Under the pieces are notes generated by a model. That model was not told the origin of the DNA, did not search any database, and worked only from the letters and a program-made list of their open reading frames with translations. Below, piece after piece: positions 12,589 through 37,005 of a DNA stretch of 64,000 nucleotides. Each line of letters opens with the position of its first letter. Within the stretch, counting starts at the first letter, position 1. The stretch spans positions 32,001-96,000 of the IMG/VR virus record IMGVR_UViG_3300045988_167206; one strand, given 5' to 3'. The stretch is from a virus. Made by a program: the position numbers and the translations under genes.

Positions 12589-12724
12589 AATAATCAAATT
12601 TATCATTTGTACTATATGCTACGCAGGGATATTAAGAATAGCTAATGTTGAGATTGCAAGTGCGGAATATTGGATTGTAGTAATATTATTAATTATTGAA
12701 AGTGTAGCGTGGGGTACATATTAA
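12581..12724 (+). CDS. Small hydrophobic protein (47 aa), not in the ORF track
   Basis: MNKIIKFIICTICYAGILRIANVEIASAEYWIVVILLIIESVAWGTY. RBS GAGGTGAG. Overlaps both neighbours, with TAATG at 12722-12726. Confidence 0.45.
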   Translation: MNKIIKFIICTICYAGILRIANVEIASAEYWIVVILLIIESVAWGTY

Positions 12725-13461
12725 TGATTTGGGTTACAGGTGATACTCATGGTGATTGGGTCCATAGATTAAATATGGATACCTTCCCGGAACAAAAAGA
12801 AATGACAAAAGAAGATTATGTGATTATCTGTGGTGACTTCGGAATTTGGAGAGATAGTGCCCAACAAAGATGGTATTTAAAATGGCTTGAAGAAAGAAAT
12901 TTTACCACACTATTTATAGACGGAAATCATAGTAACTTTGATGTACTTGATTCTTACCCGGTATCTGAATGGCATGGTGGAAAAGTACATTTTATAAATC
13001 CATCAGTAATTCATCTTATGAGAGGGCAAATATTTAATATAGAAGAAAAAATATTTTTTACTTTTGGTGGTGCTGCCAGTTACGATATTCAAGATGGAAT
13101 TCTTGAGATTGATGATCCAAGAATTAAATCCTGGAGAAAAGATCCATATAAAATGTATAGAGTCAACCATGTATCATGGTGGAAACAAGAGATGCCTGAC
13201 GAAGAAGAAATGGCTGAAGGAAGAGAGAATCTTGAATTAGCAGGTAATAAAGTGGATTTTGTTGTTACTCATTGTGCTCCATCATCTACTCAGGCCATAT
13301 TGAGCGGTGGATTTTATGAATCAGATAAGCTTACTAATTATTTGGAAACGATAAAATCTGGCATTGATTATAAAAGATGGTTTTTCGGCCATTATCATAT
13401 TAATCAAGCTGTTAGTGACAAAGACATTGCTCTATTTGAACAAATTGTGAGGATTAATTAA
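12724..13461 (+). CDS. Calcineurin-like metallophosphoesterase
   Basis: GDTHGD, CGDFG, DGNHSNFD, VTHCAP and GHYH motifs in the canonical order. Start set to the ATG at 12724, coupled to the upstream small ORF. Confidence 0.85.
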   Translation: MIWVTGDTHGDWVHRLNMDTFPEQKEMTKEDYVIICGDFGIWRDSAQQRWYLKWLEERNFTTLFIDGNHSNFDVLDSYPVSEWHGGKVHFINPSVIHLMRGQIFNIEEKIFFTFGGAASYDIQDGILEIDDPRIKSWRKDPYKMYRVNHVSWWKQEMPDEEEMAEGRENLELAGNKVDFVVTHCAPSSTQAILSGGFYESDKLTNYLETIKSGIDYKRWFFGHYHINQAVSDKDIALFEQIVRIN

Positions 13462-13613
13462 TTTATTATTAGTAAATAAGGAATTAAATAATCGAAAAGG
13501 ACACGCTTCATATAGACATAAAGGTGCTTATGGTCCAGCAGATAATTATTCAAAACATGATAAGCAGCAAGTTGAAGATGGAATACAGCAAATTAAAGAA
13601 TGGGAGAATGAAG

Positions 13614-14165
13614 ATGAAAGAAGAGAAAAAGAAGGTTCTGATTGTAATTGATGTGCAGAATGATTTTGTGACAGGAGTTCTTGGAACACCGGAAGCACAA
13701 GCTATTGTACCAAATGTGAAAAAGAAATTTGATGAATATAAGAATAATAAGAGCTATGTAATTCTTACAAAGGATACTCATCATTCAGATTACGCAGATA
13801 CTTCAGAGGGCAGAAAACTTCCTGAACATTGTATGTATGGTACTAAAGGTTGGGAAATTATTGATGAACTTGATTATAAAAATCTCGATAGTTTTATGGT
13901 GTGTTGTAAACCTACATTTGGACTTGATAACTGGGATTGGGAAGAAATATTTAATACTACAGATGATTCTTTATTAGATATTGAAATTATTGGAGTATGC
14001 ACAGATATCTGTGTGATTACAAATGCTCTTCTTATTAAAACTTATTATCCAGAGGCAAAAATCACAGTGGATGCATCATGTTGCGCAGGATCAACACTGG
14101 AAAAGCATAAAGCGGCTCTTGATGTGATGGAAAGTTGCCAGATTAATGTAACCAATAGAAATTAA
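13614..14165 (+). CDS. pncA: Isochorismatase-family cysteine hydrolase, nicotinamidase-like
   Basis: VLIVIDVQNDF, TKDTH and GVCTDICV (catalytic Cys context). Size of 183 aa fits from the ATG at 13614, which has GGGAGA 6 nt upstream. Confidence 0.7.
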   Translation: MKEEKKKVLIVIDVQNDFVTGVLGTPEAQAIVPNVKKKFDEYKNNKSYVILTKDTHHSDYADTSEGRKLPEHCMYGTKGWEIIDELDYKNLDSFMVCCKPTFGLDNWDWEEIFNTTDDSLLDIEIIGVCTDICVITNALLIKTYYPEAKITVDASCCAGSTLEKHKAALDVMESCQINVTNRN

Positions 14166-14188
14166 ATTAAACAATGGAGGAAATTAAA

Positions 14189-14797
14189 ATGATGAATAAT
14201 TTTATGAATGGAATGTTTGGGAAAATTGGTAGTGGAATGTGTAAGTTATCCATGAGCGGTAATATTGCAGTAAAAACTTCCAATGGATATAAGAGCTACA
14301 ATGTTAAATCCGGAAAGCTCACAAACTGTGGCAATTTCGTATTTCCTGGAGTAGATGAAAACTTCTTCTTCGTCATTCCAACAAATAAGGTAGCTAAAGG
14401 AGACATCATCCTTGTAAATGGCAAGCCAAAATGTGTTATTGAGGCAGACAAAACCAAGATCACTGTAATTAATTATGAAGATTCAACAATTGAAACAATT
14501 TTACCAGAACGTCACGTATTTATGGGTAATACATATTTTTATGGAAAAATTGTTTCAATGTTTGGAAGTAATTTTGGCAAAGACAAAAATAGTGCAAATA
14601 AAATTTTTAAATATATGATGATGACTCAGATGATGGGCGGATCTTCTACATCTGGCATTGGGATAGATAGTAATCCAATGAATGCCATGATGCCATTTAT
14701 GATGATGAATGGCAATATTGGAGACATGTTTGATGGCATGCTTGATTTTGATATGGATGACACAGATGAAGAGGTTGATTTAGAGGAGGATGAATAA
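14189..14797 (+). CDS. Met-rich protein with an acidic C-terminal tail (202 aa)
   Basis: Methionine clusters (MMNNFMNGMF, KYMMMTQMMGG, MNAMMPFMMMNGN) and a DFDMDDTDEEVDLEEDE tail. RBS GGAGG 7 nt upstream. Confidence 0.6.
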   Translation: MMNNFMNGMFGKIGSGMCKLSMSGNIAVKTSNGYKSYNVKSGKLTNCGNFVFPGVDENFFFVIPTNKVAKGDIILVNGKPKCVIEADKTKITVINYEDSTIETILPERHVFMGNTYFYGKIVSMFGSNFGKDKNSANKIFKYMMMTQMMGGSSTSGIGIDSNPMNAMMPFMMMNGNIGDMFDGMLDFDMDDTDEEVDLEEDE

Positions 14798-14799
14798 TT

Positions 14800-15696
14800 A
14801 TGGGATGTGGAAATTGGGATACTAAAAGTTTTGTATCTTATGCATCATCAAGAGGATTTGATACTGATACGCGAGGAGTAATCAGAGGAGATTATTCTAA
14901 TCAGGAAATGTTTAAAGCTAAAAAACTTGATCCTGCGCTTGATCCTAAAAATGCAATTAGAGAATGCTGCGATAGTGAAGAACATCCGAACACCTTGCCG
15001 GTTATTCTTGCTTTAGATGTTACTGGATCAATGGGGCAAACAGCAGTAGAAATTGCAAAAAAGCTTAATGAAATTATGACAAAATTATATGAACAAATCA
15101 ATGATGTGGAATTTATGATTATGGGTATTGGTGATCTGGCATATGATGTCTATCCAATTCAGGCCTCACAGTTTGAATCGGATATTAGAATTGCAGAGCA
15201 GCTTGACAAAATTTATTTTGAATTTGGTGGCGGTAGCAATCCATATGAATCCTATACCGCAGCTTGGTATTTTGCTTCTCGTCATACAGAACTCGATTGT
15301 TGGAATAGAGGCAAAAAAGGTGTAATTATCACGATTGGAGATGAACAGCTTAATCCATATCTTCCAATATCAGGCGAATATAATGGTTTGTCTACTGCTA
15401 CAGGTGATAATCTTCAATCAAATGTCGAGACAAAAGATTTATATCTGGAAGTTGCTAAAAAATTTGATGTTTATCATATTAATGTGGACCATCGTAATTA
15501 TTATAGTACTGAACAAGAAAATATTAAAAAGTCTTTTATGGAATATCTTGATGCAGATCATTTTAGAACAATTAATAACATTGATGACATTACAGATGAA
15601 ATTGTAAAAATTGTTACAGCTGCAAATAACGAACAAACAGTAGTACTACCGATAATTTCTGCAAAAACCGATGAATCGGGAGATATTGTTTGGTAA
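14800..15696 (+). CDS. von Willebrand factor A (vWA) domain protein
   Basis: MIDAS-like LDVTGSMG, a later GGGSNPYES and ITIGDEQ. RBS GAGGAGGA. Confidence 0.7.
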   Translation: MGCGNWDTKSFVSYASSRGFDTDTRGVIRGDYSNQEMFKAKKLDPALDPKNAIRECCDSEEHPNTLPVILALDVTGSMGQTAVEIAKKLNEIMTKLYEQINDVEFMIMGIGDLAYDVYPIQASQFESDIRIAEQLDKIYFEFGGGSNPYESYTAAWYFASRHTELDCWNRGKKGVIITIGDEQLNPYLPISGEYNGLSTATGDNLQSNVETKDLYLEVAKKFDVYHINVDHRNYYSTEQENIKKSFMEYLDADHFRTINNIDDITDEIVKIVTAANNEQTVVLPIISAKTDESGDIVW

Positions 15697-15705
15697 GGAG
15701 AAAAT

Positions 15706-16809
15706 ATGAAAGATATAAAAATTGTCATTGGAGCAAATTTCGGTGACGAGGGAAAGGGTAAACTTACAGATTATTATACTAAAGATAAAAATAATTGTAT
15801 TGTTGTTTGCTCAAATGGAGGAGCGCAGAGAGGACATACAGTATTGAAACCTAATGGGATACGTCATGTTTTTCATCATTTTGGTTCCGGGACATTAAAT
15901 GGAGCCGATACATATTTACCAGAGGATTTTATTTTAAATCCTCTGGTGTTTAAAGAAGAATGGGATGAATTAAAAAAAATGGGATTTGAACCGCATGTAT
16001 ATGCCAATAAAAAGTATATGATTACAAATCCTCTTGATATGATGGCTAATCAAATAATTGAAAGAAATCGCAAAGATAACAAACATGGTAGCTGCGGAAT
16101 GGGAATCTATAATACCATTCAAAGACATAAAAATGACATTATAGATTATTTGGATTCCTGGGCATATTATATGAATATGTTCAGAAGGATGAAAATTACT
16201 TTATCAGAAGAAGAAGCTGAATTATTCGACCAATATAAAAAAGGAAAAGAGATTCGTCTTCATTATTTTAAAGATTTGGATTTTATGATGGAACATATAA
16301 AAATTGTTCAGGATGATCAAATATTAAATAAATATGACACAATAGTATTCGAAAATGGCCAAGGATTGCTTCTCGATCAGAATAATATGGAATATTATCC
16401 ACATCTTACTCCGTCAAATACTGGTATAAAAAATCCTTCCAGGATTATAAAAGCAGTAAATTGGGACGCTGAAATTAACGTAGAGGCATGCTATGTAACC
16501 CGTTCATATATGACAAGACATGGAGCAGGTGCATTCCCAACTGAATGTAATAAGACAGAGATAAATACAGATATAACAGACTTAACTAATGTACCTAATC
16601 CACATCAGGACGTTTTAAGATATGGAACACTTGATGTAAATGAATTATACGATAGATGCCAAAGGGATGTAAAAGTCGCTGGCATTCCATGTCATAAAGT
16701 GTTAGCTATAACTCAAGTAAATGCATGTAAATCAATTATTCCATATATTTATAAAAAATTCAAAAAAAATAATTGGAATATAAAATTTTTTCATTTGGAG
16801 GAGAATTAA
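15706..16809 (+). CDS. Short (archaeal-size) adenylosuccinate synthetase family protein, PurA/PurZ-like
   Basis: GANFGDEGKGK P-loop, GGAQRGHTV (PurA has GGHNAGHT), FENGQGLLLD and TRHGAGAFPTE (PurA has TRVGxGPFPTE). 367 aa. Confidence 0.8.
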   Translation: MKDIKIVIGANFGDEGKGKLTDYYTKDKNNCIVVCSNGGAQRGHTVLKPNGIRHVFHHFGSGTLNGADTYLPEDFILNPLVFKEEWDELKKMGFEPHVYANKKYMITNPLDMMANQIIERNRKDNKHGSCGMGIYNTIQRHKNDIIDYLDSWAYYMNMFRRMKITLSEEEAELFDQYKKGKEIRLHYFKDLDFMMEHIKIVQDDQILNKYDTIVFENGQGLLLDQNNMEYYPHLTPSNTGIKNPSRIIKAVNWDAEINVEACYVTRSYMTRHGAGAFPTECNKTEINTDITDLTNVPNPHQDVLRYGTLDVNELYDRCQRDVKVAGIPCHKVLAITQVNACKSIIPYIYKKFKKNNWNIKFFHLEEN

Positions 16810-17063
16810 TGTATTTACATGATAGACTTATGGATTTATCTCAAAAAACAGAATGTATGGATGTAATATTACATAATGAGTTTAAAAATGATTATCCTTA
16901 TCGAGAAAATTTGCATGATGTAACATTTTTGATTGGCGAACTTATAGATATTTTACAACAATCAACTCTTACATATGATGATCTCATTCAATTAGAACAA
17001 CAATATAACGAAAGGTATGACAGCAAAATTAAACAAGAAAAAGATAATGAAATTATTTGGTAA
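16809..17063 (+). CDS. Hypothetical protein (84 aa)
   Basis: ATG coupled to the upstream stop (TAATG), preceded by GGAGGAG. Confidence 0.55.
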   Translation: MYLHDRLMDLSQKTECMDVILHNEFKNDYPYRENLHDVTFLIGELIDILQQSTLTYDDLIQLEQQYNERYDSKIKQEKDNEIIW

Positions 17064-17075
17064 AGGAGTCTACAT

Positions 17076-17894
17076 ATGATTAAGATTAATAATAATGTAT
17101 TTAAGCCAGAATATTTTCCGGATGGAACGATGAAATTAAAACTTGATGGAGATATAAATTATTGGATTTATTGGCTTTATGATTCAGAAGATGAATTACT
17201 CCAGCTTTATTACATTATGAATTATATTGATGAAAATCATGCACAATCAAGTACATCATTATTTATGCCATATATTCCAAATGCTAGATTTGACCGAACT
17301 AAAAATTATTATGAAATTTTTACCTTAAAATATTTCGCTAAATTTATTAATTATCTTCATTTTGATGAAGTGATAGTATTTGATCCTCATTCACATGTAT
17401 CCGAAGCGTTAATTGATAGGCTTTGCATTCATAACCCTTTAAATTCAATTATTAAAACCATTAAAAAGATTACAAATACATCAAAAGAGTTACTTTTATT
17501 TTTTCCAGATGAAGGAAGCACAAAAAGATATGAGAATGTAATTAAAACATATTCAGAATCTCCATATACTTTCGGTATTAAAAACAGGGATTGGGTCACA
17601 GGAGAGATTAAAGGATTATCTGTAAACGGACAAGTTGATCAGATCAAAGATAGAGACGTACTTATTATTGATGATATTTGCAGCAAAGGTGGCACGTTTT
17701 ATCACAGTGCTAAAAAACTTAAAGAACTTGGCGCGAATAAGATTTATCTTTATGTAAGTCATTGTGAAAATACAATTTATGCTGGAGAATTGCTTAAAGA
17801 TAACGGATTGATTGAAAAAATTTTCACTACAGATAGCATTTTAACAGATCTTACAAGTCCTAAAATTGAATTAGTAGAGGAGTGGAGAAAATAA
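17076..17894 (+). CDS. Ribose-phosphate pyrophosphokinase family protein (Prs-like, candidate ADP-ribose pyrophosphokinase Adps)
   Basis: PRPP-binding loop DVLIIDDICSKGGTF and FDPHS. At 272 aa it is shorter than housekeeping Prs. It lies next to a Nampt-family gene. Confidence 0.75.
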   Translation: MIKINNNVFKPEYFPDGTMKLKLDGDINYWIYWLYDSEDELLQLYYIMNYIDENHAQSSTSLFMPYIPNARFDRTKNYYEIFTLKYFAKFINYLHFDEVIVFDPHSHVSEALIDRLCIHNPLNSIIKTIKKITNTSKELLLFFPDEGSTKRYENVIKTYSESPYTFGIKNRDWVTGEIKGLSVNGQVDQIKDRDVLIIDDICSKGGTFYHSAKKLKELGANKIYLYVSHCENTIYAGELLKDNGLIEKIFTTDSILTDLTSPKIELVEEWRK

Positions 17895-18262
17895 TGAAAC
17901 CAATTATTAGTCCTTGGACGATTTATTTTGCCAGTAGAGTAGATTCTTTGAAAATTCTTGCTGGGTGTATTTTAGTATGTTGCATAATTGCGATATGCAT
18001 AGCATTCATTGAGGGCGATATAGACTACGGATCAGTATTAACTCATAGAAGTTTCATGAAGAAATGTGTAATAATATCTATTATCAGTGCGGTTGTTTTG
18101 GTAATCACGCCAAGTACAGAAACAGTTTATACAATGGTAGTAGCAAATGAAATTACACCAGACAATATTCAAGCATTTGGTAAAACTGGTAAGAATGTAG
18201 TTGATTACATTACAGATCAGATTGACAAAATTATAAATAAAGATGACGAAAAGGAGAAGTAG
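17894..18262 (+). CDS. Membrane protein (122 aa, two predicted TM helices)
   Basis: ILAGCILVCCIIAICIAFI and VIISIISAVVLVI. Start coupled by TAATG to the Prs-like stop. Confidence 0.6.
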   Translation: MKPIISPWTIYFASRVDSLKILAGCILVCCIIAICIAFIEGDIDYGSVLTHRSFMKKCVIISIISAVVLVITPSTETVYTMVVANEITPDNIQAFGKTGKNVVDYITDQIDKIINKDDEKEK

Positions 18263-18265
18263 AAT

Positions 18266-19732
18266 ATGTACGATACATTAGCGATTTTATTATGCGACAC
18301 TTATAAAACATGCCATAACCGAATGTTTCCTAATAAACTTACAAAATTAGTATCTTATTGGACTCCAAGAAGATCTATGTTGAAATATCAAGATCATATG
18401 GTATTCTTTGGACTTCAAGCATTTATTAAAAAGTTTCTGATCGAAGATTTTAATAAAAATTTCTTTGATTTACCAGAAAGTGCAGTAATGTATGAATACT
18501 CCTACACAATGAATACGCAGTTAAAACCAGGAGATTACGATATTGGGCCAATCATTGAATTACATAGATTAGGATTTCTTCCTATTCAGATTCGTGCATT
18601 ACCGGAAGGAACACTGGTTCCAATGGGAGTTCCTTGTATTGAAATCTTTAATACAAAACCAGAATTTGCATGGGTAGTCCAGTGGATTGAGTGTATTCTG
18701 CAGGTGGAACTTTGGAAACCATGTTGTCATGCGACAATCGGGCATATGTATAGGGAATCTGCAAATTATTGGTATAAAAGAACAGTTGATAATGTAAAAC
18801 CATCAATGGCCGCCTCTGACTTTGGAATGAGAGGAATGTCTTGTATGGAAGAAGCAGAAAGATGCTCCGCTGCTTGGTTGCTTTCGTTTGATAAAACATC
18901 CACAATTCCAGCAATCGATTATATTTATAATTATTATTCTACGAACTGTCAAAAACTCAATATTGGACTTGGAGCAGTAAGTACAGAACATTCTGTAATG
19001 GCTTCAAATTTTGCAGTAGACGGTGACGAAATTACATTTGTAAAACGATTACTTACAGAATTATATCCAAATACTTCATTTAGTATGGTTTCTGATACCT
19101 ATGATTATTGGAATATGATCGATAATATTCTTCCGGCCTGCAAAGAAGAAATTATGAATCACAATGGTAAATTGCTTGTAAGACCAGATTCTGGAAATAT
19201 GGTTGATATCTCAGTAAAGACAGTAAAAAAACTTTGGGATATATTTGGTGGGACTATTAATAGTAAAGGTTATAAAGTACTCGATCCACATATTGGTATT
19301 ATTTATGGCGATGGTTGTAGCTTATACAATGTGAACGAGATTTGGAGTTTACTCGCAGATGAAAGATTTGCAGCAAATAATATTGTATTTGGTGTCGGAG
19401 CCTTTTGTTTCTCGGCAATTGTTGAGGGTGACGGTCATATGGCAGTAGTTACCAGAGATACATTTGGAATTGCAATGAAAGCCACATATGGTGTCGTGGA
19501 TGAAAAACCTATTATGATTTATAAAGATCCCAAAACAGATACTTCTCATCTTAAAAAATCCCATAAAGGTTGTTGCAAAATTTATCGTGATCAGAGCGGA
19601 GAATTAATCTGTGAAGATGGTTTTGATAAGCCACAGCATGGAGAGTTGCATATTGTATATTGCAATGGCGATATTATTGAAGAAGAAACATTTGAGGATA
19701 TTCGTAGAAGATTAAATACTCAGGAGAATTAA
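18266..19732 (+). CDS. Nicotinamide phosphoribosyltransferase family protein (Nampt/NadV-like, candidate Namat)
   Basis: FGMRGMS, VSDTYDYW, VRPDSGN and IIYGDG. 488 aa, typical for the family. Confidence 0.85.
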   Translation: MYDTLAILLCDTYKTCHNRMFPNKLTKLVSYWTPRRSMLKYQDHMVFFGLQAFIKKFLIEDFNKNFFDLPESAVMYEYSYTMNTQLKPGDYDIGPIIELHRLGFLPIQIRALPEGTLVPMGVPCIEIFNTKPEFAWVVQWIECILQVELWKPCCHATIGHMYRESANYWYKRTVDNVKPSMAASDFGMRGMSCMEEAERCSAAWLLSFDKTSTIPAIDYIYNYYSTNCQKLNIGLGAVSTEHSVMASNFAVDGDEITFVKRLLTELYPNTSFSMVSDTYDYWNMIDNILPACKEEIMNHNGKLLVRPDSGNMVDISVKTVKKLWDIFGGTINSKGYKVLDPHIGIIYGDGCSLYNVNEIWSLLADERFAANNIVFGVGAFCFSAIVEGDGHMAVVTRDTFGIAMKATYGVVDEKPIMIYKDPKTDTSHLKKSHKGCCKIYRDQSGELICEDGFDKPQHGELHIVYCNGDIIEEETFEDIRRRLNTQEN

Positions 19733-19734
19733 AT

Positions 19735-20172
19735 ATGAATAAATCAATGATTTATAAAAGAAATGTATATATGAGCAGAGACTCAAAAGATGTTGAAGAA
19801 ATGTTCAGTGAAATTTTAAATAATTATGAAGAAAAAGAAGAAACGATTAAGTATCTTCGGGAAGAAAATAAAAGAATTAAAGATGAAAAATATAAGGATT
19901 CTGAACTAACTTCTATGAAAAGAGAACTTGAAGGTGTAAAAGGAGACTTATATAGAGGATTTCCGATTTCAATAAAAGAAAAAAAAGCTATCGAAGAATG
20001 GCGATTAAAACATGAAGCTGAGGCTCACGGAAGAAAAACACTTGAACAAAGGTTATCGGCACACGGAGCAATTGGCGGCAGTTACACTTATGTTTTCACG
20101 CCGACAAGCATTGGTGTTGTTGGCGAGTTTAAGTGTAGTTGTGGCGAATCATTTACATTTCAAGATATTTAA
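19735..20172 (+). CDS. Hypothetical protein (145 aa), coiled-coil N-terminus and Cys-containing C-terminus
   Basis: ORF with RBS AGGAGA. C-terminal GAIGGSYTYVFTPTSIGVVGEFKCSCGESF. Confidence 0.6.
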   Translation: MNKSMIYKRNVYMSRDSKDVEEMFSEILNNYEEKEETIKYLREENKRIKDEKYKDSELTSMKRELEGVKGDLYRGFPISIKEKKAIEEWRLKHEAEAHGRKTLEQRLSAHGAIGGSYTYVFTPTSIGVVGEFKCSCGESFTFQDI

Positions 20173-20184
20173 TAAGGGGTATTT

Positions 20185-20952
20185 ATGACATTAAAAGAGA
20201 TTAAAGAAAAAATAAGGACAGATCCGGCATACGGGTTTCTTCGTACAGATCCTCATCTTGGAGATAATATCTGTCTTCTTTATTTAAGCGGTAGTTATGC
20301 TTACGGAACAAATGTTGAAGATAGTGATATTGATCTTCGTGGGGTTACTTTAAATAGCAAAGAAGAAATTCTTCTTGGACAGGATTTTAGAAGTGTTACA
20401 GATGGAAGTACCGATACAACAATTTATTCATTTAAAAGAATGGTCAAAATGCTTTGTAGTAATACTCCAACTGCTATTGAGATATTTGGTCTTAAACCGG
20501 AACATATTTTATACGCTAATTCAATAGGAAAAGAATTGTTGACTAAGCAAAATATGTTTCTTACAAAAAGAGTCGCTTCTGCTTTCAAAGGATATATTCA
20601 GGCTAGTTTAAAATTGCTTGAATCAGAAAAATGCCTAAATGATAAAACTATGATGTCCAAATATATGGTTCATCCATTTCGATTGTATTTTATGATTATT
20701 GATATTTTAACTGATCGGACAATAACGACATATCGTGAAGAAGAACACGAAATACTTATGGATATTCGTAATGGAAAATGGCTTGAAAATAATAAACCTT
20801 CTAATGATTATATGAATTTTATAAGAAATTATAACAGAGTGATTCCATTTCTTCTTAAAGAAAAAAGTAATCTTCCAGAAGATTTAAATTTGTGTAACAT
20901 TGATGATTATGTGATAGCAGTACATGAAAAAATTGTCAAAGGAGAAATTTAA
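20185..20952 (+). CDS. Pol-beta superfamily nucleotidyltransferase (PF10127/RlaP-like)
   Basis: LSGSYAYGTNVEDSDIDLRGV matches the GS-x9-12-D-x-D nucleotidyltransferase signature as laid out in that family. Confidence 0.65.
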   Translation: MTLKEIKEKIRTDPAYGFLRTDPHLGDNICLLYLSGSYAYGTNVEDSDIDLRGVTLNSKEEILLGQDFRSVTDGSTDTTIYSFKRMVKMLCSNTPTAIEIFGLKPEHILYANSIGKELLTKQNMFLTKRVASAFKGYIQASLKLLESEKCLNDKTMMSKYMVHPFRLYFMIIDILTDRTITTYREEEHEILMDIRNGKWLENNKPSNDYMNFIRNYNRVIPFLLKEKSNLPEDLNLCNIDDYVIAVHEKIVKGEI

Positions 20953-21045
20953 TGATTAAAGTAATCAATGGAAGCATTTTAAATGCTAAAACAGATTTTA
21001 TTATTATTACAAGGAAAACTCAGTACCAAAAGAGGAGGAATAAAT

Positions 21046-21402
21046 ATGGATATTATTTATTTTGAGCTTAATAACTGGTTTTGTGGTAGAGATTATCCAA
21101 ATGATGAGCCATTTATTTCATGGATGAGTAATGATTTACAATTAAAATTCGATAACGAAGATTGGATTATTGAAAATAAATTATGTGTAGTAAAAACATT
21201 TGTAGACATGTCTTGTAATTTCTGTATTACTGCCACAAAGGAATGGGTAGAAGAGAATTGTCCTAAATTACTTACAGAATATAATGAGTTTTTAAGATAT
21301 CCTGATAAATATGGAGATACTTATGGAAAATTTGGAACATTATTTTTGGAATATTGTGTAGAAAATATTGGGTTGGAAGATAGAGAAGAAGATGATATTT
21401 AA
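21046..21402 (+). CDS. Hypothetical protein (118 aa)
   Basis: Start set to the ATG at 21046 behind AGAGGAGGA. The longer ORF-track N-terminus lacks an RBS. Confidence 0.6.
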   Translation: MDIIYFELNNWFCGRDYPNDEPFISWMSNDLQLKFDNEDWIIENKLCVVKTFVDMSCNFCITATKEWVEENCPKLLTEYNEFLRYPDKYGDTYGKFGTLFLEYCVENIGLEDREEDDI

Positions 21403-21418
21403 TGAAAGGATATAAGAT

Positions 21419-22174
21419 ATGAATTATTATTTTGATGCTAAAAAAGTAAAAGATGATTGCGTACAGTGGATTAGAGATTATTTTACAAAGAATGGACTAG
21501 ATTGCAATGCAATTGTTGGAATTTCTGGAGGAAAAGATTCTTCTGTTGTGGCTGCACTTTGCGCAGAAGCACTTGGAAAAGATAGGGTTATTGGTATTCT
21601 AATGCCACAGGGAATACAGTCTGATATTGGATATGCTCAAGAACTTTGTGCCGAACTTGATATTGAGAATTATACTATTAATATTGAATCTGCTTATAAA
21701 GCAATTAGAAATCAAGTAAAAGAGACTCTTAATGGGCATTGGAGCCAGCAGAGTGCCATTAATTTACCGGCAAGATTAAGAATGAGCATATTATATGCTT
21801 ATGCACAGACATTAAATGGAAGAGTGGCAAATACATGTAATCTTAGTGAAGATTGGGTAGGATATGCAACACGATACGGAGACTCTGCAGGAGATTTTAG
21901 TCCGCTTGCAAACTTTACAGTTGAAGAAGTAAAAGCTATTGGTAGAGAATTAGGTCTGAATGAGCTTTTAATTGAAAAAGTGCCAACAGATGGTCTTTGC
22001 GGTAAAACAGACGAAGATAACCTTGGTTTTACATATGCAGTTCTTGATAGATATATTAGAACTGGTAAAATTGACGATTTGGAAACCAAGAAGAAAATTG
22101 ATTATCTTCATGAAAAAAATGCGTTTAAGTTAAGATCAATGCCTACATTCAAATATCCACCTTGTCCATTTTAA
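21419..22174 (+). CDS. nadE: NH3-dependent NAD+ synthetase
   Basis: PP-loop GISGGKDSSV, then LPARLRMSILYAYA, GYATRYGD, PLANFTVEEV and VPTDGL...DEDNLGFTY. Confidence 0.9.
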   Translation: MNYYFDAKKVKDDCVQWIRDYFTKNGLDCNAIVGISGGKDSSVVAALCAEALGKDRVIGILMPQGIQSDIGYAQELCAELDIENYTINIESAYKAIRNQVKETLNGHWSQQSAINLPARLRMSILYAYAQTLNGRVANTCNLSEDWVGYATRYGDSAGDFSPLANFTVEEVKAIGRELGLNELLIEKVPTDGLCGKTDEDNLGFTYAVLDRYIRTGKIDDLETKKKIDYLHEKNAFKLRSMPTFKYPPCPF

Positions 22175-22186
22175 GGAGAATTAGAT

Positions 22187-22312
22187 ATGAAGCATGATAA
22201 TATTACAAAATGCATAGCATGGATTACAATCTGTATAGCAGTACTCGCCGGCTTATATTGGACAAAATCTCCGTCATGCTTATGGGCGTTCTGGATCCTA
22301 TTACTTATATGA
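22187..22312 (+). CDS. Small hydrophobic protein (41 aa), not in the ORF track
   Basis: MKHDNITKCIAWITICIAVLAGLYWTKSPSCLWAFWILLLI. Strong RBS AAGGAGA. Its stop overlaps the next ATG (ATGA at 22309-22312). Confidence 0.45.
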   Translation: MKHDNITKCIAWITICIAVLAGLYWTKSPSCLWAFWILLLI

Positions 22313-22671
22313 GGTGTAAAATGAAAAATAAAGATCAAATTAAATATACGATTAACCATAGAAAAGCTTTTCGAAAAGTAGAAAAAGAACTTCTTGGACA
22401 CAACACAGTAAGAAGTTTGTTTCATGACTTAGATAAAGTATTTTTGTACATGGTGTTCGACCATGAGAAAGTACATAATTGGCATAGATATCATAGTAGA
22501 CATCATCTAAAAGCCAGAACTCATGATGATTATGTGCAGATGGCAATTGATTGGGAATGTGCAAGGTTTACTAAACCAGATAAGCCATTAAATGCGAGAG
22601 AAACATTAAAGAAGATTCACCCAGAAGTCACAGATGAAATGCTTCCTGTATTAGAAGAATTGGGACTATGA
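22309..22671 (+). CDS. Small His/Asp-motif protein (DUF5662-like, possible metal-dependent hydrolase)
   Basis: HRKAF..(17)..HDLDK..(12)..HNWHRYHSRHH and DWECARFTKPDKP. Start placed at the coupled ATG at 22309; 22321 is also possible. Confidence 0.5.
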   Translation: MRCKMKNKDQIKYTINHRKAFRKVEKELLGHNTVRSLFHDLDKVFLYMVFDHEKVHNWHRYHSRHHLKARTHDDYVQMAIDWECARFTKPDKPLNARETLKKIHPEVTDEMLPVLEELGL

Positions 22672-23325
22672 ATGAATAAAGAAGATATTGTAGTATTATT
22701 TATTATATTAATTTTTATTGGATTCTTTTGTATGTATTTAATGGCGGCACGTATTTGGAAAGATATAGATAAAGAGATAGAAGAAGACAAACAAAGGAGA
22801 ATACATATGGCAAAACGAGTAGCAAAGTTCGAAAAAGTATCAAAACAGCAGTTTATTCAGGACTGGCAGCATGAATTTATGGGATCTGAAGAATGGGCTG
22901 GATTTATCTATGATCGAATTAAATTACCAGCAAGAGCAACAAAATTTTCAGCAGGATATGATTTCTTTGCACCAATGGACTTTACACTGAACCCGGGAGA
23001 AACTGTCAAGATCCCTACCGGTATCCGTTGTGGAATCAATACAGACTGGGTATTAATGATTTATCCTCGAAGCGGCCTTGGCTTTAAATATAGAGAAATG
23101 CTTGCAAATACAGTTGGAGTAGTAGATAGCGATTATTTTTATTCAGACAATGAAGGCCATATTTTTATCAAAGTTGTAAATGCCGGAGATAAAACACTTC
23201 ATATTGAAAGCGGGAATGGTTTTGCACAGGGGATTTTTACTGAATATGGTATCACAGAAGATGATCATGTTGAAGCAGAACGAAACGGTGGATTCGGAAG
23301 TACAGATAAAAAGGAACTTAAATAA
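22672..23325 (+). CDS. dut: dUTPase, with an in-frame 45-aa N-terminal TM extension (alternative start 22807)
   Basis: The five trimeric dUTPase motifs: AGYDF, IPTGI, PRSGLG, GVVDSDY and ERNGGFGSTD. An internal ATG at 22807 follows AAAGGAGA. Upstream codons encode IVVLFIILIFIGFFCMYLMAA. Confidence 0.85.
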   Translation: MNKEDIVVLFIILIFIGFFCMYLMAARIWKDIDKEIEEDKQRRIHMAKRVAKFEKVSKQQFIQDWQHEFMGSEEWAGFIYDRIKLPARATKFSAGYDFFAPMDFTLNPGETVKIPTGIRCGINTDWVLMIYPRSGLGFKYREMLANTVGVVDSDYFYSDNEGHIFIKVVNAGDKTLHIESGNGFAQGIFTEYGITEDDHVEAERNGGFGSTDKKELK

Positions 23326-23741: not shown

Positions 23742-23770
23742 TTTCTAAAAAAATTATGAAAGGATTATTT

Positions 23771-24004
23771 ATGAATATTAGAATTAATGATACAAATGCG
23801 GCCAGAAAGCTTGTTTCTATTGCCAGCAACAAAAAATATGCAGACTACGATATTGATTGCATCTGCGGACGTTATATCATTGATATGAAGTCAATTATGG
23901 GAATGCTTTCATTTGCGCTTCCCACGGATGTAGATATTGTGATCCGGGCAGATGGGGATATAGAAAAAGAGTTTTACGAACATGTTAAACGTATAGCGTC
24001 ATAG
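23771..24004 (+). CDS. HPr-fold protein lacking the His15 equivalent (Crh-like)
   Basis: IDMKSIMGMLSFALPTDVDIVIRADGDIEKEF aligns to HPr VNLKSIMGVMSLG..G.EITI.A.G.DE. The active-site context reads TNAAR where HPr has GIHAR. Start taken at the ATG at 23771 after AAAGGA. Confidence 0.6.
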   Translation: MNIRINDTNAARKLVSIASNKKYADYDIDCICGRYIIDMKSIMGMLSFALPTDVDIVIRADGDIEKEFYEHVKRIAS

Positions 24005-24096: not shown

Positions 24097-25269
24097 ATGG
24101 GAAAAGATTTAAAAGGTAAAGAACTTGGAAAGGGGATTACACAAAGAAAAGATGGTAGATATCAAGCAAGATTTACTAATCGTTTTGGAAAAAGACAGAC
24201 GATATATGGTAAAACACTTAAAGAAATTAAAAATGCATTACATGAAGAAACTATAAAAGATTTACGAGAAGAAAATGTAAAAAATATTAAATTAACAGTA
24301 GATGAATGGTTTGAAATATGGTCCAAAACATATAAGGAAACTACAATTAAAAAAACTACATTTGCTAAAAATAAAAGAAATTATCAACATCAAATTAAAC
24401 CAGTTATAGGGAATAAAAAAGTCTCCGAAGTAACATCATTTGATATTGTTTCTTTAACCAGTAACATGGCAAAAAAATATACAAAAGGTTTTATAAGAGA
24501 TGTACATGGTATTTTATATGATATGTTCGAACAAGCGTACATAAATGAGCTATGCAAAAAAAATCCTGTTTATGGAACTAAATTTGGTGGAAAACCAAAT
24601 AGAAAAATACAAGCATTAAATATTGAAGATCAAAGTGAATTTTTAAAATCAAGTAAAGATAATTTTTATTATAATGCGTTTGTTGTACAATTAAATACCG
24701 GTTTAAGACTTGGAGAAATCATAGGTTTATGTGTTGAAGATATTGATTTAAAAAATAATATGCTTCATGTTAGACATAATATGATTATGGTTAGGAAAGA
24801 TGGAGATATTCCATCTTATTTAGAAATAAGTACACCAAAAACGAATGCTGGAATTAGAGATGTTCCAATAAATAAAGCATGTAGAAAAGCTTTGATCAAT
24901 CAACTTGAAATGCGATCTAATGTTATTTTTCCACATAAATTTCATCAATTAGTATTTTTTAGTAAAGATAATTTTTTACCAATAAGCCGATCAACATATT
25001 ATCGAAACATTAATAGTGTTGTTAAGAAAATTAATATTAAAAGAGCAAAAAATAATCAACCTCTTATAAAACAGTTTGGATCACATACTTTTAGACATAC
25101 ATTTGCAACGAGATGTTTTGAAGCTGGTATTCCACCTAAAACAGTACAGGTTTTACTAGGACATGCCAGCATACAAATGACATTAGATATTTATACATCT
25201 GTAATGCAAGATAAACGGGTTGAAGACTTAAAAAAATTTGACACTTTGATGGACACGTTATGTTTATAA
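24097..25269 (+). CDS. int: Tyrosine recombinase (phage integrase) with an N-terminal arm-type DNA-binding domain
   Basis: N-terminus GITQRKDGRYQARFTNRFGKRQTIYG (AP2-like arm binder). Catalytic signatures TGLRLGEI, HTFRHTFAT and LLGHASIQMTLDIYTS. Confidence 0.92.
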   Translation: MGKDLKGKELGKGITQRKDGRYQARFTNRFGKRQTIYGKTLKEIKNALHEETIKDLREENVKNIKLTVDEWFEIWSKTYKETTIKKTTFAKNKRNYQHQIKPVIGNKKVSEVTSFDIVSLTSNMAKKYTKGFIRDVHGILYDMFEQAYINELCKKNPVYGTKFGGKPNRKIQALNIEDQSEFLKSSKDNFYYNAFVVQLNTGLRLGEIIGLCVEDIDLKNNMLHVRHNMIMVRKDGDIPSYLEISTPKTNAGIRDVPINKACRKALINQLEMRSNVIFPHKFHQLVFFSKDNFLPISRSTYYRNINSVVKKINIKRAKNNQPLIKQFGSHTFRHTFATRCFEAGIPPKTVQVLLGHASIQMTLDIYTSVMQDKRVEDLKKFDTLMDTLCL

Positions 25270-30301: not shown

Positions 30302-32281
30302 CTATTCTATTATATCTATATCTGGAAGATCATCTTTTTCTATTTTAGTGATCATTTTTAAAAAATCATCTTTTGTAATTGTTACACTATCATCAAAATA
30401 TTTTACTAAAGTATCAAGATTGGATTTATCGTTTGTAGACATAAAGCCAGAAGTAGATGTGGTAACATTATTGTGATTATGACCAGAAGCAGCAGCACCT
30501 ATTTCATTCAACGACCATGAAACATCTGCAGAACCATTTACGGATTTTTTTGCATTACCAATAGTAATATTTCGTGCTGTTCCCCAATTCACGGTAGTAA
30601 TATCTGCAGATCCATTAAATGAAGTTCCATTGATTTTATGAGAATCTTTTAGAACAGTAGTTGTCCTGGCATTACCATTTAAAGAACCGTAAAAATTTGA
30701 AGCTACTACAGCGGCAGGAAATGTAACATTTTGGTTACTATCATATGAATAAATAGAACCATATCGGGCCATATTTGATGGAATTGTCCATCCAACACCG
30801 CCAAATCCCATTATACGTAAAACCTGTAAACCAAAATATTTTCCATCATTCCCAGAAGTACATCCAAATGTAAAACGAATTAAACCATATTGGCTACTAG
30901 GTGTATTTGCATAAGATCTAAATTTAGTTACATTAATAATATTCCAACCACTCCAACCAGAAATTTTTACCTTGTCTGCAAACGATACAAATGTACTAGG
31001 GGCTGATTCTAAAGAAGCATCAATCGTACAATAACATCCAGAGCTACCATTTGTAGAAACGTATAATGCAAATTTATTGAATTCAGTATAAACAGGAATT
31101 TTATCAGTATCTAATATAATTCTAAGCATGCATTTTTCATTAGCCATATTTTTACTATCTGACTTTCCAATTGCAAAACCAAAATCACCAGTACTTAATA
31201 TCGAACACTTTTGAGCATCAGTTGCTTCATAATTAAGCCAAGTTTTACCGCTATCACGAGAATATTCAATAGTTATTCCAGCAGGTTTACCAAAAGCTAA
31301 TCTATTCGCCCCTAAATCAGGAACCATAGCGGCATCAATACAACCAAAATCTCCAGAAAAATTTTTACCTCCCCATGATAAATAACTTTCTTTTACAGAA
31401 TCAATAGGAATACTTATATTTCCTGAACCATCGAAATTAGCTCCATTATTGGATATAGCCCCGCCAGATACTTTAATATTACGAGTAGTTGTTAATTTGT
31501 CTGCACGAACGGCTGCTAATGCACTTGTTGCAGTTTTTACAGATGCATTAGAAATATCTGAAATCTGTGAAATAGAATGAGTATGGGTAGAAGGTGTATA
31601 ACTTGTAGGTTTTCCAGTAATGTTTGTCCAATCAATACTTTCTGGTATTGCTACAATTTCTTCTGTAGCATTTGTTGGAAAATTTTCTTGGCGAGAAAAT
31701 AATGACATCCATGTAAGTTTTCCGCTTCTATCATTTAATGTTTTTTCAAAAAATTTTACTTCGTTCCATGGGACAACATGATACCATACTTCTAATTTAG
31801 AACATTTATTTACTTCGTCTTTATAAATGAACCCTTTAAGATTATCCTTTATAAAATCAGGACATAAACTATTAATTTTATACGAAATTTTAACATTATA
31901 AAAATAGGAATCACCATTATTTTGAATGTAAAATTTAATATAAGCAAATCCGTTATCTCTTTGAGCTATAGCAATTTCATAATTAAAATTTGCCCAGGCA
32001 GTAGTAGTTACTTCGAATAATTTTGTATAATATCCAGTGCCTGTATTCTCGGAAAGAATATATTTATGTTTAAAATCAGATTTATTATTTAACTGAACAT
32101 CCATTGCATATGTTAAGTCGCTCCATTTACTAGATCCGTCACCAACTTTATATCTTCCTTTGTTGTTTCCATTAGAAGTATAAGCGCATTCGCCTGTAAG
32201 CAAAATAGGATTTTTAGAGATCCAATTAGCTTCTGTATCGCACCTATTTTTAATTCGAGTATTTAATGTGTTATTTGCCAT
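30302..32281 (-). CDS. Tail fibre protein (659 aa)
   Basis: N-terminus LNTRIKNRCDTEANWISKNPILLTGECAY...KVGDGSSKWSDLTYA (hyaluronidase/Mtd-N-type fibre anchor). GKPTSYTPSTHTHS motif. Start set after GAGGAGG. Confidence 0.75.
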   Translation of the reverse strand: MANNTLNTRIKNRCDTEANWISKNPILLTGECAYTSNGNNKGRYKVGDGSSKWSDLTYAMDVQLNNKSDFKHKYILSENTGTGYYTKLFEVTTTAWANFNYEIAIAQRDNGFAYIKFYIQNNGDSYFYNVKISYKINSLCPDFIKDNLKGFIYKDEVNKCSKLEVWYHVVPWNEVKFFEKTLNDRSGKLTWMSLFSRQENFPTNATEEIVAIPESIDWTNITGKPTSYTPSTHTHSISQISDISNASVKTATSALAAVRADKLTTTRNIKVSGGAISNNGANFDGSGNISIPIDSVKESYLSWGGKNFSGDFGCIDAAMVPDLGANRLAFGKPAGITIEYSRDSGKTWLNYEATDAQKCSILSTGDFGFAIGKSDSKNMANEKCMLRIILDTDKIPVYTEFNKFALYVSTNGSSGCYCTIDASLESAPSTFVSFADKVKISGWSGWNIINVTKFRSYANTPSSQYGLIRFTFGCTSGNDGKYFGLQVLRIMGFGGVGWTIPSNMARYGSIYSYDSNQNVTFPAAVVASNFYGSLNGNARTTTVLKDSHKINGTSFNGSADITTVNWGTARNITIGNAKKSVNGSADVSWSLNEIGAAASGHNHNNVTTSTSGFMSTNDKSNLDTLVKYFDDSVTITKDDFLKMITKIEKDDLPDIDIIE

Positions 32282-35949: not shown

Positions 35950-37005
35950 CTACTTATTTTTCATTTGCATTAATCGTTCTCTAGCAGATAATGGTTTCTT
36001 TTCTGGTATGGATCCAGAAATACTAATAGAATAGTCATCTTTGAATAATGTTTGAGTTTGAGTAGATTTCAAATCTTCCTCTATTTTCTTTTTATCATCT
36101 TGAATAGATTCGTACAGTTTATTGATGGTAGTTGCAGGATATTGAAGGCCACTCATAAATATCAAATTTGTTTTAGTTTGATATCCAACAAATAAATCTC
36201 TCCAATATCCAAATTGAAGCTGCAGTTCTGTAGTGTTGATTGAAATAGTTTTTCTTGTGTTGGAACTCTTGATTCCACAATAATACAAAGGATTACGAGA
36301 TTCAATATCACAAAATATGTTGTCTGTAACTGCCTTCTTTAGATCTGCTGTAATGTCAGATTGGTTTGGCTTTCTTGAAAATGTGTTCAAAATCCCATAT
36401 CCTGAACATTCTAACATAGAACAGATTTCACTATAATCATAAATGCCGTCTATAGAAGTAGAAACATCGGAAACGAGAGAATAGACAACTTCAGCCAAAA
36501 TCTCATTACTTTTCGAATAATTAAGTTCCTTATTATTATCTACGATAAAAATAGTGTGCTTTGCAGTTTCAATTAATTCCCTCAATGCTTCATAAGCATT
36601 TGTTTTAGCCTGAAGCGATTCTGAAAAATTAGGTATTGTAACTACCGGGATCACAATCTTATTTAATTCGGATTCAATAAGCTCTGTTAATAAAGCGCAC
36701 ATTCCGGAAAATGTTCCTCCACCAATAGATCCAAATACAAAAATATATCTGCCAGTTAAATGGCGTTCAATATATTTCAATATGTCTTCATAATTATTTG
36801 CTAAATAATTTTTAGAAACATTTCTATCTTTGTGGCAGCCATTTGCACCTTCCAGATGATAATAATGAATATTATCTGTGCCTAGACTCTGCAGGTCTTC
36901 CAGTGCGCTATTAATATAAAAACTATTTACTCCATATTTTTTAAATGCAGCAACTTGATTCCCTCCGCAAGCACCAACACCGAGGAACGAAAAATTATTT
37001 TTCAT
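35950..37005 (-). CDS. tubZ: Tubulin/FtsZ-superfamily GTPase (TubZ/PhuZ-like)
   Basis: N-terminal GVGACGGNQVAAF (FtsZ G-box 1 context) and the tubulin signature FGSIGGGTFSG. 351 aa. Preceded by an overlapping small winged-helix gene, as in tubRZ operons. Confidence 0.8.
   Translation of the reverse strand: MKNNFSFLGVGACGGNQVAAFKKYGVNSFYINSALEDLQSLGTDNIHYYHLEGANGCHKDRNVSKNYLANNYEDILKYIERHLTGRYIFVFGSIGGGTFSGMCALLTELIESELNKIVIPVVTIPNFSESLQAKTNAYEALRELIETAKHTIFIVDNNKELNYSKSNEILAEVVYSLVSDVSTSIDGIYDYSEICSMLECSGYGILNTFSRKPNQSDITADLKKAVTDNIFCDIESRNPLYYCGIKSSNTRKTISINTTELQLQFGYWRDLFVGYQTKTNLIFMSGLQYPATTINKLYESIQDDKKKIEEDLKSTQTQTLFKDDYSISISGSIPEKKPLSARERLMQMKNK

Follow-up and report, generated by a model that had tools for sequence, protein, structure and literature searches.

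The 64,000-nucleotide stretch analysed here (hereafter, the window) covers positions 32,001 to 96,000 of the IMG/VR virus record IMGVR_UViG_3300045988_167206. Between positions 12709 and 22174, ORF calling identified an island of thirteen open reading frames (ORFs), all on the plus strand and either overlapping or separated by short gaps. Four of these encode a PncA-like nicotinamidase, an Adps-like ADP-ribose pyrophosphokinase, a Namat-family transferase and the NAD+ synthetase NadE. We propose that these four genes probably specify a deamidated form of NAD+ reconstitution pathway 1 (NARP1), a reading based on the predicted base pocket of the transferase, on gene co-occurrence and on a counterpart operon in Clostridia. 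We also lean, with a little less assurance, towards a wider proposal: that both the reaction and the pathway are undescribed, with Adps and a nicotinate-specific Namat replacing PncB and NadD; that the pathway is an NrtR-linked housekeeping function in gut and rumen Clostridia; and that it was captured by large phages, often together with a Macro gene, for use against NADase immunity. The four core genes are as follows.

13614-14165, plus strand (ORF from 13524): PncA-like nicotinamidase of the isochorismatase family (Pfam Isochorismatase, E 3.9e-22)
17076-17894, plus strand: Adps-like ADP-ribose pyrophosphokinase, PRPS-like, 272 amino acids (99 bits to ICP1 Adps)
18266-19732, plus strand: Namat-family transferase, Ser/Ala type, with a predicted specificity for nicotinate (SPbetaL1 Namat 9w5x, E 9e-112)
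21419-22174, plus strand: NadE, NH3-dependent NAD+ synthetase, single domain, 251 amino acids (Pfam NAD_synthase, E 7e-54)

The substrates of the proposed pathway were deduced from sequence and gene context. PncA would convert the nicotinamide freed by NADase defences into nicotinate and NH3, and Adps would use ATP to convert ADP-ribose (ADPR) into ADP-ribose pyrophosphate (ADPR-PP). The Ser/Ala-type Namat would then join nicotinate to ADPR-PP, yielding deamido-NAD (NaAD), and NadE would convert NaAD, NH3 and ATP into NAD+, in which step the NH3 released by PncA could be reused. The initial annotation of this DNA had already suggested that the Nampt-family enzyme may accept nicotinate and produce NaAD from ADPR-PP, with NadE finishing the reaction; the pocket, the co-occurrence data and the clostridial operon described below all argue for that suggestion. 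A Namat that uses nicotinate would also remove the paradox of a nicotinamidase encoded beside a nicotinamide-consuming enzyme.

Judged by similarity, the Nampt-like protein of the window is a member of the Namat family and lies far nearer to Namat than to Nampt. It scored 377 bits (E 9e-112) against the solved SPbetaL1 Namat (9w5x/9w5w), as opposed to about 184-189 bits (~1e-53) against human NAMPT and 146 bits against Xcc Nampt. It also matched the NCBIfam family NF006629, 'nicotinate phosphoribosyltransferase', above the cutoff with 452 bits, a historical name that does not discriminate between the alternatives. The Namat residue D215, which forms a hydrogen bond to the amide of nicotinamide and is equivalent to D219 of human NAMPT, is replaced by Ser212 in the window protein, where the motif reads KTST instead of the GTDT of Namat, and A242 is replaced by Ser239. 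At the SPbetaL1 positions G213, H187 and H207, the window protein has Lys, Ser and Trp, respectively, while F189, R192, H245, R306, D308, R399, D400, D13′ and Y15′ (SPbetaL1 numbering) are kept. All of the 120 closest database homologs share the KTST motif, read as [DN]KTST. Among the best 150 cluster representatives at 50% identity, position 215 is occupied by Asp in 97, by Ala in 30 and by Ser in 19, and the nearest ~45 of these representatives have almost exclusively Ala or Ser.

Our comparison of the pocket, made on 328 unique sequences in SPbetaL1 numbering with one sequence gapped at position 215 excluded, separates two types of enzyme. In the Asp/Glu type, position 215 is Asp (124 sequences) or Glu (10 sequences); in the Ser/Ala clade, it is Ala in 107/107 and Ser in 86/86 sequences of the respective types. 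Position 242 changes in parallel, being Ser in 193/193 sequences of the Ser/Ala clade versus Ala in 134/134 of the Asp/Glu type. Three further positions differ between the two groups: G213 is Gly in the Asp/Glu type and Asn or Lys in the Ser/Ala clade, H187 is His in the former and Gly, Ser or Ala in the latter, and H207 is His in the former and Trp in the latter. Seven residues contact nicotinamide in the crystal structure of Namat (PMC12774641). Five of them, F189, R192, R306, D13′ and Y15′, are essentially invariant in both types, and the only contacts that are switched are the two facing the ring substituent, D215 and A242. Across the 328 sequences, little or no variation is seen in the catalytic His or in the ligands of ribose and phosphate (H245, R306, D308, G360, D361, G390, R399 and D400), and most adenine contacts are kept as well, the donor-site set including the aromatic residue at position 392 and T398.

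Mutational data on both enzyme families bear on the switched positions. In Namat, the D215A mutation lowers NAD+ synthesis from nicotinamide ~8-fold (PMC12774641). In human NAMPT, Asp219 has been reported to define substrate specificity (PMC7096376); the D219A mutant is inactive, and D219S is listed in the same review table as one that 'switches the substrate affinity' (PMC4919578 Table 2). Mutations of the human NAMPT residues H191, G217 and A244, which are pocket equivalents, block the binding of inhibitors beside the nicotinamide site. The loss of an acid and the gain of hydrogen-bond donors in the pocket is the direction of change that would be expected if a carboxylate were preferred over a carboxamide.

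Two further forms of the family were observed in these searches. Many Namat/Nampt-family representatives (P0122-P0260) are 550-1100 amino acids long and were matched by the query in two or three stretches, with breaks near residues 250 and 315, which suggests inteins or other gene insertions. In addition, an abundant Ser-type Namat variant of 646 amino acids (P0007, a cluster of 2406 sequences, and L005 9992-11935) has a C-terminal extension of ~160 residues with no Pfam match.

The gene neighbourhoods of the two types also differ. Viral loci were fetched with four queries, namely the window protein, an alignment of the Ser/Ala type, an alignment of the Asp type as a control, and a further divergent set; bacterial loci were obtained by searching species genomes with a distant Ala-type alignment. 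The ORFs of each locus were searched with profiles built from the window proteins, and co-occurrence was counted in loci having at least 5 kb of flanking sequence on both sides. On this basis, viral Ser/Ala-type loci have PncA in 136/136, Adps in 136/136 and NadE in 135/136 cases, and bacterial Ala-type loci have the same three genes in 44/44, 44/44 and 40/44 cases. The viral Asp/Glu-type NARP1 loci have Adps in 53/53 cases, with PncA and NadE in 0/53 each. Thus, the survey proposed in the initial annotation found that the Ser/Ala-type Namat always pairs with PncA and Adps and nearly always with NadE, and that the Asp/Glu type never pairs with PncA or NadE. All of the PncA, Adps and NadE genes counted lie on the same strand as Namat.

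An Adps-like gene accompanies Namat in 180/180 Ser/Ala loci, where it lies directly upstream and in most cases adjoins it (median distance 0); in the window, it lies upstream of Namat on the same strand, separated from it only by an ORF of 126 amino acids. One locus (L050) consists of a bare contiguous operon of just four overlapping genes, PncA-Adps-Namat-NadE. The Ala-type phage loci have a different order, Adps-Namat-x-NadE-PncA, and the association persists through this change, down to ~37% identity, and in phages as well as bacteria. Scanning viral sequence for 'NSST'-type Namat representatives yielded only further Ala-type loci. In a neighbour-joining tree from which the diagnostic columns were omitted, the Ser/Ala clade falls into a single clean bipartition, with 34/34 of its sequences and 0/119 of the Asp/Glu type inside.

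A bacterial counterpart of the four-gene core was identified in 80 loci, all of them Ala-type and nearly all from Lachnospiraceae, Ruminococcus, Oscillospiraceae and related taxa. Isolates are represented by Ruminococcus albus 8 and Pseudoruminococcus massiliensis, and in these two the flanks consist of ordinary chromosomal genes. The common arrangement is [NrtR]-PncA-Adps-Namat(Ala)-NadE-[NrtR], and 61/80 bacterial loci contain an NrtR homolog, versus 0/205 of the viral loci searched. NrtR, a Nudix-type protein, regulates NAD genes, and among the metabolites tested, ADP-ribose freed it from DNA most effectively (PMC2330246). The classical operon of C. acetobutylicum has the order nrtR-pncA-pncB-nadD-nadE (PMC2330246). 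In the new operon, Adps and Namat take the slot of PncB and NadD, two enzymes that together also turn nicotinate into NaAD. The four core proteins of the window are all 46-63% identical to their counterparts in the bacterial operon, and the sequences are consistent with transfer of the four genes as a block. As a separate observation, twelve of the bacterial operons (L255, L243, L248, L258 and others) encode a long, glutamine-dependent NadE with CN_hydrolase and NAD_synthase domains (648 amino acids in L255); the NadE of the phage copies is always the short NH3-dependent form.

The three partner enzymes were assigned from their nearest characterised relatives. All of the genes that the initial annotation had named were recovered by Pfam and NCBIfam searches, on the plus strand and at the positions it gave, and the motifs VIDVQNDF, GVCTDICV and GISGGKDSSV that it had cited are all found in the translations. 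The isochorismatase-family gene has its likely start at the ATG at 13614, with a GGGAGA site 6 nucleotides before it. The best solved relative of its product is the pyrazinamidase/nicotinamidase of P. horikoshii (1ilw, E 2e-11), and both the triad D43/K129/C163 and the metal site D84/H86/H102 align with this enzyme and are at least 95% conserved among 164 unique homologs. The protein scored 30.4 bits against the NCBIfam equivalog NF008623, below the cutoff of 174 bits; we consider it a divergent putative nicotinamidase.

For the Prs-like protein, the reference was the ICP1 Adps sequence from GenBank, an enzyme whose structures and activity have been published (PMC13586617). The window protein scored 99 bits against ICP1 Adps, with 33% identity, versus at most 64 bits against any solved PRPS, and the ICP1 Adps residues R87, H121, D161, the catalytic K185, D212, D213, I214 and C215 are invariant in the alignment. 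Its length of 272 residues is close to that of ICP1 Adps (280) and below that of the solved E. coli PRPS (321), which fits an Adps, an enzyme that is devoid of the C-terminal alpha11-alpha12 module of PRPS. Its pyrophosphate (PP) loop, DDICSKGGTF, is also found in some Asp-type NARP1 loci. The window NadE, with 181 bits against TIGR00552 (cutoff 63.65), a conserved SGGxDS loop and no glutaminase domain, is by these features a standard NH3-dependent enzyme. No PncB- or NadD-type family was found among the island proteins of the window or among the operon-neighbour proteins scanned in L255 and L272. The family searches of the island proteins thus agree with the initial annotation, which had seen neither of these Preiss-Handler enzymes there; the only NAPRTase-family match is the Namat-like protein itself, which also has a NAMPT_N domain.

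As for the purpose of the pathway in phages, we infer that it restores NAD+ after attack by host NADases. This is suggested by the anti-defence function of the characterised NARP1, by the Macro, NADAR and Tpt1 genes of related islands, and by Gad2 upstream in related contigs. Of the related viral Ser/Ala loci, 82/95 have a Macro-domain gene in the interval from Namat to NadE; in NARP1 generally, Macro is present in ~15% of cases, as the ADPR-1″-phosphate phosphatase Adpp (bioRxiv 10.64898/2026.01.28.702374). The related Ser-type islands also include NADAR (35/80), the RNA 2′-phosphotransferase Tpt1/KptA (24/80) and a HAD-like gene (31/80), examples of these extra genes being L111 11684-12166, L006 14637-15128 and L008 11900-12478. 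In the window, no ORF matched the Macro profile at E<=0.01, and NADAR, Tpt1 and the HAD-like gene are likewise absent. Jumbo-phage contigs of 238-261 kb encode the anti-Gabija protein Gad2 (PF26128) 2-4 kb upstream of the PncA-Adps-Namat-NadE block (L356 1924-2361; L357 3572-4801). A radical-SAM-like ORF lies between PncA and Adps in these Gad2 contigs, and also in L058 and L100.

The same chemistry could instead serve the general upkeep of NAD+ for NAD+-consuming replication enzymes, by means of a copied host operon. We regard this alternative, which concerns purpose only and whose probability is not to be added to those of the readings of the chemistry, as rather unlikely. It is favoured by the chromosomal and usually NrtR-adjacent location of the operon in many Clostridia, which implies a housekeeping role there, by the assorted NAD synthesis genes reported in gut jumbo phages (PMC11662467), and by the position of the window island after the replication and nucleotide-metabolism module. 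However, the Macro (82/95), NADAR and Tpt1 genes added in related islands, the nearby Gad2 and the anti-defence function of the characterised NARP1 system speak for counter-defence, and the two purposes are compatible with one another.

Several points weigh against a nicotinate-using counter-defence pathway. The case for a counter-defence role is built on homology and neighbouring genes alone, and the route would cost one extra ATP compared with NARP1. As reasons for such a detour, we can only speculate that host PncA in these Clostridia could quickly deplete nicotinamide, that charged nicotinate might be retained in the cell, or that the ATP-driven NadE step might render the route irreversible. 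Since the Ser/Ala enzymes form a single clade, their association with PncA and NadE essentially reflects a single ancient event preserved by inheritance, and the Fisher p of ~1e-48 for this association overstates the independence of the loci. The effect of D219S on NAMPT is described in the review table merely as a switch of affinity. In the PP loop of Adps, the window has Ser in place of D216, which binds triphosphate in ICP1 Adps; this variant occurs in some ordinary NARP1 loci as well. Finally, the clamp region of the window Namat reads GAFCFSA-IVEGDGHMAV-VTRD: an aromatic residue (F) remains at clamp position 3, an insertion of ~10 residues precedes position 7 (Y396), which is occupied by Ile or Val, and Ser-type enzymes, the window protein among them, have Met in place of the clamp residue R40. 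Because the published 'selectivity clamp' of Namat is thus only partly kept, the use of ADPR-PP rather than phosphoribosyl pyrophosphate (PRPP) as donor is not secured.

These changes to the clamp raise the possibility of a variant of the Preiss-Handler pathway, in which the Prs-like enzyme makes PRPP, the Ser/Ala enzyme gives nicotinate mononucleotide (NaMN), a host NadD converts it to NaAD and the encoded NadE finishes the synthesis. The pocket changes and the association with PncA and NadE fit this variant equally well, and the degraded clamp of the Ser type (R40 to Met, Y396 to Ile or Val, and the 10-residue insertion) favours it. Namat itself keeps PRPP activity in vitro (PMC12774641), NadD belongs to the near-universal route from NaMN to NAD and should therefore be supplied by the host (PMC2330246), and the family name of NF006629 (452 bits), though non-discriminating, points the same way. 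We nevertheless consider this variant unlikely. The Prs-like gene product scores higher against Adps (99 bits) than against any solved PRPS (at most 64 bits) and has the DDIC loop and the short C-terminus; an Adps-like gene in 180/180 Ser/Ala loci would be odd if ordinary cellular PRPP sufficed; and neither NadD nor PncB is found among the island proteins or those scanned in L255 and L272. Moreover, the pair stands in for both pncB and nadD in the bacterial operon, which is flanked by the ADP-ribose-released regulator NrtR (PMC2330246). The Ala-type enzymes also retain both key clamp residues, R40 (107/107 sequences) and F392.

The remaining alternative, which the initial annotation had offered, is that the pair is an ordinary nicotinamide-dependent NARP1 and that PncA and NadE are independent helpers feeding host PncB and NadD; although Adps and Namat are homologous to the characterised NARP1 enzymes, and the catalytic His245 remains in place along with the ribose and phosphate sites, we find it highly improbable, because the amide-binding Asp is gone throughout the clade and its loss cripples both Namat (D215A, ~8-fold) and NAMPT (D219A, inactive) (PMC12774641, PMC4919578), because a nicotinamidase would compete for nicotinamide, and because PncA and NadE are found in 0/53 Asp/Glu-type loci, where they would be equally useful.

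The nine ORFs of the island outside the four-gene core are lineage-specific passengers. Seven ORFs of the span had not been listed in the initial annotation: a gene of the PurA/PurZ family, a small membrane protein gene, and five with no Pfam family at gathering score. The nine ORFs are the following.

12709-13461, plus strand: calcineurin-like metallophosphoesterase, accessory (Pfam Metallophos, E 1.1e-10; PHROG 1649, E 7e-46)
14174-14797, plus strand: protein of 207 amino acids, accessory (no Pfam or PHROG family)
14800-15696, plus strand: protein of 298 amino acids, accessory (PHROG 2971, E 8e-69, a family with no function assigned)
15706-16809, plus strand: divergent short adenylosuccinate-synthetase-like enzyme of the PurA/PurZ family, accessory (Pfam Adenylsucc_synt, E 4.6e-36)
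16773-17063, plus strand: small ORF of 96 amino acids (no Pfam or PHROG family)
17882-18262, plus strand: small membrane protein of 126 amino acids between Adps and Namat, accessory (PHROG 3878, E 1.4e-16)
19735-20172, plus strand: coiled-coil protein of 145 amino acids, accessory (sub-threshold XRCC4_CC match only)
20185-20952, plus strand: RlaP-type pol-beta nucleotidyltransferase, accessory (Pfam RlaP, E 3.4e-12; PHROG 388, E 2.6e-38)
20983-21402, plus strand: ORF of 139 amino acids (no Pfam or PHROG family)

Two of these genes had been drawn into the NAD+ theme by the initial annotation, and neither holds that place in related loci. The metallophosphoesterase, which had been proposed to belong to the ADP-ribose theme, is found in only 31/80 Ser-type loci, in 0/15 viral Ala-type and in 1/44 bacterial loci, and it has no informative homolog, with no relative in the PDB at E<=0.01. 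We also considered it as a stand-in for the Macro phosphatase and rejected this role: the two genes are both present in 19 loci and are thus not mutually exclusive, and the phosphoesterase has no solved relative. The pol-beta nucleotidyltransferase, which had been counted with the island, occurs in 27/80 Ser-type, 13/15 viral Ala-type and 4/45 Asp-type loci; with only 40/95 viral Ser/Ala loci, it is not a core member.

The genes at 14174-14797 and 14800-15696 and the PurA-like gene occur together in 21/80 Ser-type loci. The PurA-like enzyme matches PHROG 1211, which has a PurZ-type label, with E 3.4e-75; its score against the NCBIfam PurZ family is 39 bits versus a cutoff of 300, and its best PDB matches are canonical PurA enzymes, at ~60 bits. 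Its identity as PurZ, which would point to a 2-aminoadenine genome, is not established, since the NCBIfam score lies far below cutoff even though the PHROG label agrees; no homolog of DatZ or MazZ was recognised. Possibly, the enzyme takes part in 2-aminoadenine synthesis or in the resynthesis of AMP, among other options. Among Ser-type loci, the small membrane protein is present in 35/80 and in none of the other types, the coiled-coil protein in 41/80 and in no Ala-type or bacterial locus, and the 96-residue ORF in 7/80; the 139-residue ORF was found in 1/80 related loci.

The window derives from a large gut phage that encodes a DNA polymerase, an ExoV/Dda-type helicase, a ribonucleotide reductase, an endolysin and tail fibres, and the island is placed after the replication and nucleotide-metabolism module. 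A weak scan of the plus strand between 9986 and ~25400 gave no terminator-like site; the promoter and terminator scan was uninformative, with matches at or below the expectation from shuffled sequence and promoter-like matches not above chance. A near-identity search of cultured-phage DNA gave one weak match, to an unannotated faecal phage, and a protein-level search of 50,697 phage records gave none above 60% identity. The Ser-type clade is so far confined to uncultured phages and metagenome-assembled genomes.

Directly after NadE, an ORF of 153 amino acids (22210-22671) contains an 'HDLDK...H' motif; Pfam, PHROG, NCBIfam and the PDB gave no relative, and none of the fetched loci contains a homolog. 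It is followed downstream by a dUTPase with an N-terminal extension of ~80 residues (22672-23325), an HPr-like protein (23756-24004) and a Tn916-type tyrosine integrase (24097-25269). The orientation of the window genes reverses after ~26000, into the lysis and tail genes. On the minus strand, a protein of 351 amino acids (35950-37005) resembles the tubulin PhuZ weakly in PHROG (E 1.7e-7) and an unknown family more strongly, and is of interest for a large phage.

With regard to novelty, the NARP1, NARP1-AP and RyDEP preprints and the NARP3 paper make no mention of PncA, of NadE or of nicotinate use by Namat. A full-text literature search for Namat or ADPR-PP together with NaAD or nicotinate gave nothing relevant among the top results, within a scope that did not extend to subscription-only papers. 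A survey of gut jumbo phages notes pncB-nadD-nadE clusters, NAMPT and pncA genes, and not a pathway from nicotinate and ADPR-PP. The reaction of nicotinate with ADPR-PP to give NaAD is thus undescribed in the literature searched, and a prior description elsewhere is possible.

If the proposed pathway is correct, it would represent a new reaction (nicotinate + ADPR-PP to NaAD) and a new branch beside NARP1, NARP2 and NARP3, and would imply that one or two pocket residues may re-route a pathway. A rule for annotation would follow, in which GTDT with A242 marks the nicotinamide type and [KN][TS][SA]T with S242 the nicotinate type; tools that detect anti-defence systems and label all such pairs 'NARP1' would misassign the Ser/Ala loci. 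In abundant gut Clostridia, the operon would be a dedicated system for recycling ADP-ribose and niacin, which bears on vitamin B3 metabolism in the microbiome. It would also offer a fresh angle on a question from 2008, when the pairing of prs with Nampt-family genes was called unexplained (PMC2330246), namely what accounts for the co-regulation of Prs paralogs and Nampt-family genes by NrtR, the sensor of ADPR.

Among known systems, the closest is NARP1 (Osterman et al. 2024, bioRxiv 10.1101/2024.02.11.579819; PMC12774641, PMC13586617), with which the island shares the adjacent Adps/Namat pair, predicted to take in ADPR and to give out NAD+. It differs from NARP1 in the replacement of Asp215 by Ser or Ala and of Ala242 by Ser, in an SCH clamp with an insertion, and in the nicotinamidase that is always, and the NadE that is nearly always, encoded alongside; the predicted product of its Namat is NaAD, not NAD+. 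NARP1-AP, which consists of NARP1 with the Macro protein Adpp (bioRxiv 10.64898/2026.01.28.702374), is likewise an extended NARP1 operon with accessory enzymes. In the window, however, the Macro gene is absent, and the extension would alter the base branch and not the ADPR branch.

The engineered D219S mutant of human NAMPT (Khan et al. 2006, as cited in PMC4919578 and PMC7096376) has the same Asp-to-Ser change at the equivalent position as the window protein. As presented in these citing papers, it is a single mutant of a PRPP-dependent enzyme, whereas the natural clade has at least four more correlated changes in the pocket.

The NrtR-regulated prs-nadV operons of Shewanella, Acinetobacter and others (PMC2330246) resemble the present system in combining a Prs paralog, a Nampt-family gene and a link to NrtR. 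By their description, they are set apart as nicotinamide salvage operons without PncA and NadE. Finally, the classical Preiss-Handler operon also has PncA first and NadE last, is NrtR-linked in bacteria and leads from nicotinamide through nicotinate and NaAD to NAD+. In the proposed pathway, Adps and a Namat-family enzyme would stand in for PncB and NadD, and the ADP-ribosyl part of the product would come from recycled ADPR instead of from PRPP and ATP.

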